Virus record (IMG/VR): IMGVR_UViG_2579778634_000008
Span: 1-27,188 of that record
Direction: 5' to 3' (one strand)
DNA length: 27,188 nt
Source of the DNA: a virus
Lineage: Duplodnaviria; Heunggongvirae; Uroviricota; Caudoviricetes
In this document: positions 9,001 through 12,000 of the stretch, piece by piece
How positions within the stretch are numbered: position 1 is the first letter of the stretch
How the letters are laid out: the number at the start of each line of letters is the position of its first letter
Position numbers: made by a program

Positions 9001-12000
9001 GTTAAGCTGAGCCGGAGGCTGACATTGGCAGAATATGGTTTTGCAATATACAACAGAAACAATGTTAATGTTACGGGCGTGCTTACTCCCATATTTTTCC
9101 TGGACAGGTTTACGGCGGAGTCGGGATCAAAAACGTATACGAATAAACCAGAAGGGAAAACATTGCAGGCAGTCTGTTCATTATTTCCGTGGAATAATGT
9201 ATTTAAGGACCGGAAAGTACCGAAGATAACCATTAATGGCAATACGGTGACGTGGTCGAATCTTGAGCAGGGGATGGGATCATATATTTATACATTCTGG
9301 GGGTGAGTTGTATGTATGGTTTAAGCATTACGAAACCAGATGGCAGCTTGTGGATAAGCCCGGGGTTTACGCCTCAGTGTCTGATCAATAAGGGAACTAT
9401 TCCGGCGACTGAGAAGGCTTTTTTTAAAACATCAATCCCGTCAGGAAAAAGTTGTTTTTTCTTTATCAGAACAGAGAAAAAGGCCGATGTCATGTACACA
9501 CATGAACAGATTGATGGATATCATGCCTTAAGGCTTCATCAAATTGTCAGGGGAACGAATCCTGGTGTTACGACTGTTTATGCTTTTGCGAATATGGTTA
9601 CTCAACCTTCTGAGTATGGTATTGCCATGTATAACCCGTCGGGTGAGATGATTTACCATGGCGAAATGATGCTGCTTGACGCGAAGTTAATACCAGTTGA
9701 TATCAAGTTTGAGAAGGATCTTGGATATCCATGCGCAATTATGCCTGCACTGGTTGGGTATTATAACTGGCAGCGTACACCTTATGACCGACCGATTTAC
9801 ACCACATCAACGGGGGCTACAGGAAATAAAATATATTCCTGTGAGCATTATTCCGGTCGTGCAACATGGGATATTCGGAAGCCGTATATAGATAAAGTGT
9901 TGGTCATTAATTCATCAATGTATGACTGATATGCCTGTCAGTATGAATATTAAGTAATAAAACTAAATTCATCTTAGATAATACGGGGTTATTTTATTAT
10001 AGGAAAAGTCTAAAAATGAAACATACCAGAATTATTTTTGCGTGCACAACTTTTGTGATGAGTTTTGTAGCAGCCCCTGCCTGTGCAGCACAAGGTGACA
10101 GTACAGTTTCTTTCGGATACGCTCATCTTCAGCTCTCTGGACTGAACAATTTTGTTAAGGATTTAAGTCTTTATAATCTTGATACTTTTAACCGTTTTAC
10201 AAACAGACACTACTTCAATTCAGGCGAATATGCAGATGCTTCTGTCCGGGGGCATGATGGCAAAGGCAAATCTCCTCAGGGGATGAGCATCAGGTATCGT
10301 TATGAGATAACGGATGAGATTGGTGTTATAACATCTTTTACATGGGCGCGTTCTATGACTAATGCGCAGGCATTTATTGATATTAACCCAGGAGATGAAT
10401 CCAGAGAGGTTAAAAATCCGGCAGCTTCAGGAAGAACAGATATCAGAGCGAATTACTGGAGCCTGTTAGCGGGTCCTTCGTGGCGGTTTAACGAATACCT
10501 CAGTGTGTATGCAATGGCTGGTATGGGCGTAGCTAAAGTTACCGCTGACCTGAAAATTAAGGACAACATTAACAGTACCGGTGGATTTTCTGAAAGCAAC
10601 AGTACGAAAAAAACAGCACTTGCATGGGCTGCTGGTGCACAATTTAACCTGAATGAAAGTGTTGCTATGGATGTCGCGTATGAAAGCTCCGGATCTGGTG
10701 ACTGGCGCACGAGCGGGGTTGTTGTAGGTATTGGCCTGAAATTCTGATCTGTATCCGACAACATGTCATAACCCGCTGTGATGGCGGGTTTTTTGTTGCC
10801 CGTGCAGGGCAAAAATCGTAGATTATGCGCGGGTGCCTTTCGGCTGATGGCTGGAAGGTGAACCTGAAGGCCTGATGTGGAAAGGCCCCGAGTCAACTTT
10901 AATGTTAACCCGAGGCCCTGACCGTACAACCTTCACAAGTAGTAGGTTAGCGCCTCTCCACTCAGGAGACAAGCGTTATGTCGCAAAAATCGCTCATCAC
11001 CGTCACAATTTGTATGACGGTAATCTTCACCATCTGGATGTTACACGGCTCGTTGTGTGAGTTCCGGCTGAATTTGTGGGGAGCGGAGTTTGCGGCGTTC
11101 TTACAGTGTAAGCAGTAGGAAAACCGCGACGGGGACGAAAGTCCCCGTCAACTGGTTGCTGAGGTTCAGCCGATATGGCACCCGTTTCAGGTGAGAGAAT
11201 GGACGACAAAATTCTCCGGTATATGCAGCGTGTTGTGAGAAATTCCCGCAACCCTGAATTTATGAATGAAGTTAAAGACGCCTGCCTTAAAAAGCAGGCG
11301 TTTTGCTTTGAAGCGCCGGATGGTTTTCTGGTGCTGCGTTCTGTGCTCAGTGACGATGGTATCCCTTATGTTCTGGTGTTACTGGGCGTGTGTACGGGGA
11401 GTAAGAGTGTTGAGCGTTATCTGCCGGAGGTGAAGACATTAACCCGCCTGGCTGGCGGACGCTGGGCCGAATTTCATACGGCAAGACGAGGATTTATCCG
11501 GCTGGGAAAACGTCTGGGCTTTGAGCGAATGCCGGATGATGAGGATGGCTTCATGGTGTTCAGGATAGCAGTCTGACTGCCACTGTATTCATCATCGAGC
11601 GTAAACCCACATTGCAATTCACATTCTGACCCTGCTCCGGCAGGGTTTTTTGTTATCTGAGGAGCCATTATGGGCGGAAGTAAAGGTGGTGGTGATACCA
11701 AAGTAAAACCAACAGCAGCGCAAATAGCACAGGAAGAGGTGGCCTGGAAAGGGTGGCAGGATTACAAAAATATTCTCCGTCCGGCAGAAGATAACTTCAT
11801 GAAAAAGGTCGATGACCTTAACAGTGAGCAGCAGTACGAAAATATCGCAGGCACAACAAATCTTGGGTATCAGAAACAGTTTGGTGAAGCGCGAAGGGAG
11901 CTGGCGGGTAATCTTGCTCAGTCCGGCGTTGACCCATCCAGTGGTCGTTTTAATGCAGTAATGGATGCAAATCAAAGCGACCAGGTGATCGGGCAGATTG

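Follow-up and report, generated by a model that had tools for sequence, protein, structure and literature searches.

The window analysed here (27,188 nucleotides, nt; positions 1 to 27,188 of IMG/VR virus record IMGVR_UViG_2579778634_000008) corresponds to an Escherichia coli prophage resembling the Shiga toxin (Stx) phages 933W and Sp5, and its positions 10811-11183 probably constitute a hok/sok-type type I toxin-antitoxin cassette that is complete and mobile and is carried as a phage moron. BLAST homology started at 10811 and stopped at 11183 in every independent context, delimiting a unit of about 370 bases located between the terminator of a lom-like gene and the next virion gene. The first-pass annotation of this DNA had placed the locus downstream of the lom-like gene and inside the virion-gene region, and this position was confirmed (lom ends at 10747 and the moron precedes the next virion gene), whereas the extent proposed at that time, 10811-11149, proved too short, as the 35 nt beyond 11149 hold the fbi element, partner of the 5' end. 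The toxin family was already known, and the locus is an intact, ordinary member of a catalogued Hok cluster in a well-known phage type, unusual only in that its mok frame is not conserved. What the analysis adds are the boundaries of the cassette, an RNA switch supported by covariation, the prediction of a Sok-like gene, this lack of mok conservation and a second, unannotated Hok locus in 933W/Sp5. Comparisons were made on 27 distinct cassette copies (alignment A2), which are related to one another.

The centre of the cassette is the toxin gene:
10978-11118, plus strand: hok-like toxin gene, 46 amino acids (Pfam, PHROG 251, RefSeq and the ratio of nonsynonymous to synonymous substitution rates, dN/dS)

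The open reading frame (ORF) ran from ATG 10978 to TAG 11116-11118, encoding MSQKSLITVTICMTVIFTIWMLHGSLCEFRLNLWGAEFAAFLQCKQ, and was preceded by a Shine-Dalgarno (SD) sequence, GGAGA (10965-10969), 8 nt 5' of the ATG; both the 46-codon ORF with Hok/Gef hallmarks and its good SD had been described in the first-pass annotation. The peptide displayed a basic N-terminus (MSQK), a single transmembrane helix (residues 6-22), the motifs SLCE (25-28) and EFAAF (37-41), and cysteines at positions 27 and 44. Among 31 homologs both cysteines were invariant and L26 and E28 were kept in at least 90%; in the Hok logo, L30, C31 and E32 are conserved in more than 80% of 1264 Hok peptides. The Pfam model HOK_GEF (PF01848) scored 33.2 bits vs. 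a gathering score of 22, with residues 8-44 aligned to profile positions 6-42 of 42, PHROG 251 ('MokW-like host killing') matched the whole peptide with 85.8 bits, and the identical ORF is labelled 'Hok/Gef family protein' in RefSeq (WP_000078907.1), so that membership of the toxin gene in the Hok/Gef family was supported. An ORF of 46-47 codons was unbroken in all 27 copies, with a median pairwise dN/dS of 0.22; purifying selection acts on the toxin peptide.

A peptide identical to this one is listed as '72_1589' in the 2025/26 Hok survey of Escalera-Maurer et al. (preprint, bioRxiv 10.1101/2025.08.07.668861), where it was cloned under an arabinose promoter in plasmid LRP157. In the preprint, 42 of 45 tested Hok homologs were toxic and 72_1589 does not appear among the three named as non-toxic; the identical peptide is thus reported by others to be toxic on induced expression, a positive outcome for the expression check suggested in the first-pass annotation (bioRxiv 10.1101/2025.08.07.668861). 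Cluster 72, formed by 72_1589 and 72_1621, is a high-abundance Hok cluster and prophages are enriched in hok in the same survey (bioRxiv 10.1101/2025.08.07.668861). A literature search for an earlier account of a lom-adjacent hok locus found none.

The features predicted for the hok-like mRNA were the following:
10796-10824, plus strand: predicted promoter of the hok-like mRNA (-35 TTGCCC at 10796-10801, 17-nt spacer, -10 TAGATT at 10819-10824)
10831-10846, plus strand: tac-like element at the predicted mRNA 5' end, GGGUGCCUUUCGGCUG (single-sequence fold, RNAalifold, compensatory changes)
10877-10889, plus strand: ucb-like box, GUGGAAAGGCCCC, alternative partner of tac (3'-truncated fold, covariation)
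10948-10977, plus strand: predicted hairpin sequestering the hok SD (RNAalifold helix, columns 140-144 with 165-169, 98.5% paired)
11090-11098, plus strand: FAAF codons, UUGCGGCGU, predicted to pair with the start region AUGUCGCAA at 10978-10986 (RNAalifold, single-sequence fold)
11122-11157, plus strand: post-stop stem-loop (outer stem AACCG/UGGUU; inner GACGGGGAC-GAAA-GUCCCCGUC, 11128-11149)
11167-11183, plus strand: fbi-like fold-back element, CAGCCGAUAUGGCACCC, at the 3' cassette edge (end of homology, folds, covariation)

The -10 hexamer TAGATT ended 6 nt 5' of GGGTGCC, and of the 26 copies having GGGTGCC, 25 showed a TAnnnT hexamer with this same spacing, within otherwise unrelated upstream DNA; a TTGnnn -35 was also present in the E. 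coli-type copies. Judging from this layout, transcription would start at about 10831, giving a leader of around 147 nt (10831-10977) instead of the approximately 170 nt estimated previously. The predicted full-length RNA (10831-11184) folded as a single sequence with -150.3 kcal/mol (z = -6.3; structures were derived from the same, related sequences, and shuffle statistics are therefore indicative and not probabilities), its ends being closed by pairing of 10831-10837 with 11177-11183 and of 10840-10846 with 11167-11173 (7 + 8 base pairs, bp). RNAalifold on the 27 copies independently gave the closing helix, the SD hairpin, the pairing of the start region with the FAAF codons and the post-stop stem-loop, with 97.4% of the cells of the consensus structure paired vs. 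35-42% when partners were slid by 1-3 columns. Compensatory changes were found in the four pairs of the inner tac/fbi helix. In the SD hairpin, an outer stem AGCGC/GCGUU enclosed an anti-SD CUCC facing the GGAG(A) of 10965-10969, and the dcb-like box corresponded to GCCUC (10952-10956); the mean unpaired probability of the SD was about 0.02 in full-length folds of 26 copies. The helix between the start region and the FAAF codons (columns 171-179 with 286-294) was 99.2% paired, with one-sided changes only. The strong hairpin 3' of the stop noted in the first-pass annotation was GC-rich and had 9 bp (11128-11136 with 11141-11149) and a GAAA loop; it covaried, with compensatory changes in five of its nine inner pairs and 99.6% of the cells paired. 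By analogy with R1 (PMC9841398), the post-stop stem-loop is likely the 3' protective hairpin of a processed mRNA.

When the RNA was truncated after the post-stop hairpin, tac re-paired in the fold with the ucb-like box. This tac/ucb helix was 92.4% paired across the 27 copies, as compared to 35-61% in slid controls, and two of its pairs presented UA/CG and CG/GC exchanges, in nine copies each. The same 5' nucleotides therefore covary with two different partners, fbi and ucb, which is the signature of an R1-type switch from tac/fbi to tac/ucb, as described for R1 hok mRNA (PMC9841398).

On the opposite strand, the leader presented the features of a Sok-like gene:
10884-10917, plus strand: leader hairpin, by position the Sok-target hairpin (alignment with hokW and the Rfam model)
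about 10937 to about 10878, minus strand: predicted Sok-like antisense RNA of about 60 nt (fold; position taken from the annotated sokW of 933W)
10944-10972, minus strand: predicted Sok-like promoter (-35 TTGTCT, complement of 10967-10972; 17-nt spacer; -10 TAACCT, complement of 10944-10949)

The leader hairpin holds a GAGG (10912-10915) homologous to the SD of mok, and on the minus strand it forms the terminator-like stem-loop of the predicted antisense RNA. This RNA, the ends of which are approximate, would begin with about 14-18 nt of unpaired 5' tail, followed by a perfect 16-bp hairpin and UUUCC (-28.6 kcal/mol, z = -4.4). A minus-strand promoter in the leader, for which the first-pass annotation had suggested looking, was predicted at 10944-10972; its -35 overlaps the hok SD, and its motifs were kept in all 27 copies, the -10 being TAACCT (23 copies) or TATCCT (4 copies) and the -35 TTGCTC, TTGTCT or TTTACT where the spacer was 17 nt long and TTGACT where it was 18 nt. 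A block nearly invariant among the copies, AGGTTAGCGCCTC, lies in this promoter region. With 7 of 12 consensus matches, the promoter equals our own count for the R1 Sok promoter. In 933W, the annotated 5' end of sokW is 7 nt downstream of the AGGTTA that is the complement of a -10 TAACCT, with a TTGCCT -35 17 nt upstream, and the same TAACCT hexamer occupies the homologous place in the window; mutations in the sokW -10 region abolish antitoxin activity (PMC8621323). In every one of the 27 copies, positions paired as G-U in the minus-strand hairpin were A·C mismatches when read on the plus strand, and the minus-strand hairpin was also more stable in all of them (mean -20.7 vs. -13.2 kcal/mol; -24.9 vs. 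-12.9 kcal/mol in the window copy). Because of this consistent difference in stability, the strand asymmetry points to selection on an antisense transcript. The mRNA segment facing the 5' tail of the Sok-like RNA (10918-10937) was the most variable part of the leader, which would limit cross-talk among several copies in one genome. In a permissive scan, the Rfam model RF01794 (sok / hok leader) matched over its full length at 10831-10989 on the plus strand (E = 2.9e-6), a match indicative of homology without membership at the curated level.

Hok translation in R1 requires mok, and a mok-like frame had been reported for this locus in the first-pass annotation:
10875-11060, plus strand: 61-codon 'mok-like' frame, open here and not conserved

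The frame is present with the length proposed; the functional role attributed to it did not hold up in the comparison, the frame from ATG 10875 reaching or reading through the hok SD in only 5 of the 27 copies. A canonical hok/mok/sok arrangement, in which these 61 codons are a true mok needed for hok translation and Sok acts by blocking mok, would fit with the frame being open in the window copy and in four other distinct copies, with a GAAGG 4 nt 5' of ATG 10875 and with the end of the predicted antisense RNA lying 1-3 nt from that ATG, which it could occlude. Nevertheless, 12 of the 27 copies had a stop in the frame after 1-24 codons, including the copies of 933W and VT2-Sakai/Sp5, where the Hok peptide is identical and the stop comes after 8 codons; ATG 10875 was missing in ten copies, including all nine of the Salmonella type; frame-shifting indels occurred between ATG 10875 and hok; and no start codon was present at the site homologous to the mokW AUG, where GUA was found (mokW GAGGCUCAAUCCAUG vs. 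window GAGGCCCUGACCGUA). Moreover, the ATG region falls within the covarying ucb-like box and would be paired in the 'active' fold, and the conservation near 10875 (GAUGUGGAAAGGCCCC) is better explained by that role. The mok-like frame is thus probably not a functional gene, and we regard the canonical arrangement as unlikely. A non-AUG mok start after GAGG was considered as well and discarded: CUG 10918 is in frame with hok and meets a stop at 10948, and there was no conserved start.

The comparison suggests instead that at least one Hok lineage can do without mok, which is relevant to the textbook view of mok as a requirement for hok translation. Somewhat tentatively, at a little under an even chance, we propose that cluster 72 is a mok-less hok/sok lineage that has kept tac, fbi, ucb, GAGG, dcb and the Sok promoter, in which Hok translation is activated by another route and which in 933W/Sp5 may add to the lysis and release phenotype of hokW-sokW. 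Such a route would be direct opening of the SD, ribosome standby or read-through from phage late transcripts.

Several observations weigh against a working hok/sok-type cassette. No hok/sok family was found at Rfam gathering thresholds (RF01794, 35.6 bits vs. 59). The peptide did not reach the cut-offs of the NCBIfam HokA equivalog NF007290, its best-scoring NCBIfam model (38.4 bits vs. 89), or of the Hok subfamily NF007279 (22.7 bits vs. 73), and because these scores are far below equivalog level the toxin belongs to a separate Hok subfamily, distinct from HokA-E and without orthology to any K-12 hok gene. Both promoters are weak matches to the consensus and neither was reported by a generic promoter scan, having been located through homology and conservation; the antisense terminator has a poor U-tract (UUUCC); and there is no conserved mok frame. 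In the copies within P2-like prophages an intrinsic terminator follows fbi by about 25 nt, but none does in the phage context of the window, so that the mRNA 3' end and the processing step are uncertain here. Finally, the SD stayed mostly paired after 3' truncation in silico (mean unpaired probability from 0.02 to 0.09), because of which some or all copies could be translationally silent. Given the weakness of this effect, direct freeing of the hok SD by 3' truncation, with GAGG as an anti-anti-SD, is not claimed.

These last points bear on a second alternative, namely that the cassette is a silent relic with its SD and AUG permanently sequestered and no mok, from whose native mRNA toxin is never made and which has no present function. 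The pairing of the SD in both the full-length and the truncated folds and the lack of a conserved leader ORF agree with it, decayed copies do exist (for example at 991-1239 of the window) and several K-12 hok loci are reportedly inactive (Pedersen & Gerdes 1999). A relic is, however, hard to reconcile with a peptide under purifying selection (dN/dS 0.22, intact in 27 of 27 copies), with compensatory changes upholding three different helices and both promoters, or with an antisense hairpin selected on the minus strand, an antidote being needed only if toxin can be made; and the decayed copy displays what lost constraint looks like. We therefore consider this explanation quite improbable. Control in cis only, with no antisense RNA and the conserved leader serving the mRNA folding switch alone, is very unlikely: although the blocks with the putative Sok promoter are also engaged in mRNA structure, in the dcb/anti-SD block and in the SD hairpin, and the hexamers are weak, the minus-strand G-U pairs correspond to plus-strand A·C mismatches in every copy, TAnnnT and TTGnnn with a 17-18-nt spacer are kept despite changes (TAACCT to TATCCT; TTGTCT to TTGCTC to TTGACT), and the hexamers are homologous to those of the sokW promoter, in which mutation of the -10 eliminates the antitoxin activity (PMC8621323).

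The scheme that we infer for the hok/sok-type cassette covers both transcripts and their ends, the 3' processing, the action of the antisense RNA and the biological role. In it, an mRNA would be produced from about 10831 by a weak constitutive promoter (TTGCCC, 17 nt, TAGATT). The full-length RNA would be translationally inert, with tac (10831-10846) bound to fbi (11167-11183), the SD in its local hairpin and the AUG on the FAAF codons. Trimming of the 3' end to the post-stop hairpin would let tac move to the ucb-like box (10877-10889) and the leader hairpin open, as in R1, and the antisense RNA of about 60 nt would pair with 10878-10937 and bring about mRNA decay, which in hokW and R1 involves RNase III. 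Once the antisense RNA is gone, the 46-amino-acid peptide would be made and inserted into the inner membrane, and the cell would be killed or lysed. Unlike in R1 and hokW, there is no conserved mok to couple translation. Among prophage hok/sok loci only hokW-sokW of Sp5 has been tested, and it aids lysis and phage release (PMC8621323); by analogy, the role would be to help with lysis and phage release after induction, the alternatives being prophage stabilisation or phage exclusion; the addiction or abortive-infection role mentioned in the first-pass annotation is an assumption. The practical value lies mainly in annotation, in that Stx2 phages hold a second Hok-type cassette in a gap left unannotated, and the comparative data provide a testable RNA map, with promoters, tac/fbi/ucb switch and antisense RNA, of a prophage toxin that is very frequent; classification is unchanged, as both the toxin family and the type of site were already known.

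The cassette was found at least once in 1750 of 5426 complete E. coli genomes (about one third), many of which have more than one copy, in up to nine places per genome with the cassette as query and up to 11 with a longer query of 551 nt, and relatives were found in Salmonella, E. albertii and Citrobacter. Its contexts varied: 3' of lom in prophages of the Stx/933W type (loci L001-L003); 3' of ogr at the end of P2-like prophages, beside serS, yidD or tRNA genes (L004-L006, L009); 3' of gpJ in a prophage of the lambda type (L007); and in the O157 urease island / O-island (L008). The Salmonella copies lay at the ends of prophages, as tandem pairs or close to a relaxase gene. Tandem pairs about 490 nt apart occurred in four Salmonella contigs (L028, L029, L032 and L033, at about 1350-2210), at prophage ends beside a YafO-toxin gene. 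A form lacking the promoter and the tac element, with the ORF intact and the sok-like promoter kept, was common to nine loci (within L039-L048). A wider host range, as suggested by matches in Xanthomonas pisi (L010, a contig of 857 nt), a Planococcaceae metagenome-assembled genome (L011) and Vagococcus sp. (L013), was rejected as probable contamination or mis-binning: these cassettes had 76-100% protein identity to enterobacterial copies, the contigs were short or odd, and the downstream flank in Vagococcus sp. matched that of E. coli copies in the P2 context.

The window itself contains a second, decayed copy at 991-1239 on the plus strand (78% identity over 262 nt), flanked by an ORF of the tail-fibre/J type (58-960) and a tail-fibre gene (1330-2709). 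Both the -10 box and GGGTGCC are retained in it, as well as the leader hairpin and the AGGTTAGCGCCTC block; its start is GTG, a TGA follows after six codons, and an internal deletion has removed the 3' half of hok together with the hairpin and the greater part of fbi. Its closest resemblance was to the copy located after gpJ in the lambda-like prophage (L007).

Upstream of the cassette, the lom-like gene occupied 10016-10747 (Pfam Ail_Lom, 114 bits) and ended in a terminator:
10770-10795, plus strand: intrinsic terminator of the lom-like gene, AACCCGC/GCGGGTT plus a T-run, at the upstream cassette edge (terminator scan)

On the other side, the downstream ORF (end at 11576) was annotated by the Prokaryotic Genome Annotation Pipeline (PGAP) from ATG 11175, which overlaps fbi; it is matched by PHROG 610 from residue 9 onwards, and ATG 11199 has an SD, GGTGAGAG. 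Judging from these signals the gene probably starts at ATG 11199 and not at the PGAP ATG, and with that start the fbi element would be intergenic. In loci L004-L006, L009 and L012-L014 (L014 being E. albertii), and apparently in L008, a terminator (CCCGCAGCGTAAAAACTGCGGG plus Ts) was observed about 25-55 nt after GGCACCC; this shared terminator, absent from the Stx-phage context, may represent the point at which the hok-like mRNA ended ancestrally. In the window, the first terminator-like hairpin beyond fbi on the plus strand (11276-11300) lies inside the downstream virion-region ORF (11199-11576), as part of a canonical-looking terminator at 11276-11308 (ACGCCUGC, 8-nt loop, GCAGGCGU, then UUUUGCUUU), which could end lom/hok moron transcripts expressed in the lysogen and be read through by Q-modified late transcription. 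Close to the end of the window, and downstream of a gene similar to those of 3'-phosphoadenosine 5'-phosphosulfate (PAPS) reductases (24151-25377), two matches to Rfam sRNA-Xcc1 (RF02221) were found on the minus strand about 530 nt apart (26244-26329 and 26778-26866; 73.4 and 69.1 bits vs. a gathering score of 53).

Among known systems, the hokW-mokW-sokW locus (Takada et al. 2021) comes from the same type of phage, and both it and the cassette were assigned to PHROG 251. Identity with the published hokW-sokW was rejected, hokW being a different gene of 51 amino acids about 13 kb away in 933W, and the hokW-like 5' element (GGGTGCTTGAGGCT) was not found in the window. In 933W (AF125520) hokW/mokW/sokW, with a canonical 51-amino-acid Hok, is at 58460-58734 near attR, whereas the cassette (L017) is at 45428-45856, unannotated in the gap between lom and L0129; in VT2-Sakai/Sp5 (AP000363) the cassette (L049) is at 44469-44897, unannotated between lom and orf66, with an identical Hok peptide. 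Thus, 933W and Sp5 carry two Hok-type loci. The lom-L0129 gap was unannotated in 28 of the best 30 matching phage records, all 28 being records of Stx2a-converting phages, and a second Hok locus is not mentioned in the study of hokW-sokW in Sp5 (PMC8621323), where deletion of hokW-sokW gave partial phenotypes only (PMC8621323). Both loci share a -10 placed 6 nt before GGGUGC (TAGAAT in hokW), the leader hairpin, GAGG and a minus-strand TAACCT promoter (predicted in the cassette) with a 17-nt spacer, followed in the same order by the SD, hok, the post-stop hairpin and an fbi ending in GCACCC. They differ in the peptide (HokW, MKQQKAM...DYESEK, 51 amino acids, encoded at the right phage end near attR, vs. 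46 amino acids ending in QCKQ in the lom/virion-gene gap), in the AUG of mokW 9 nt after GAGG, where the cassette has GUA, and in the leader, about 22 nt shorter in the cassette. Toxicity, antitoxin activity, dependence on RNase III and Hfq and a role in lysis and release have been tested for hokW-sokW (PMC8621323), whereas for the cassette only peptide toxicity has been tested.

The survey that defines Hok cluster 72 contains the same peptide, but it deals by design with the coding sequence only, and Mok, Sok, mRNA structure, boundaries and insertion contexts are not described in it. The cassette resembles hok/mok/sok (parB) of R1 in the tac/fbi closure, the predicted re-pairing of tac with ucb after 3' trimming, the GAGG and dcb-like boxes, a putative Sok promoter overlapping the hok SD region and a putative Sok of about 60 nt made up of a 5' tail and a hairpin (PMC9841398), as well as in the peptide motifs SLCE-R and E-AAF. 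It differs from R1 in lacking a conserved mok, in encoding 46 instead of 52 amino acids and in remaining below the threshold of the Rfam model, and R1 is a plasmid addiction module whereas the cassette is a prophage moron. As compared with hokA-hokE of K-12, which belong to the same Pfam family, the cassette is prophage-borne and multi-copy, with up to 9-11 places per genome.

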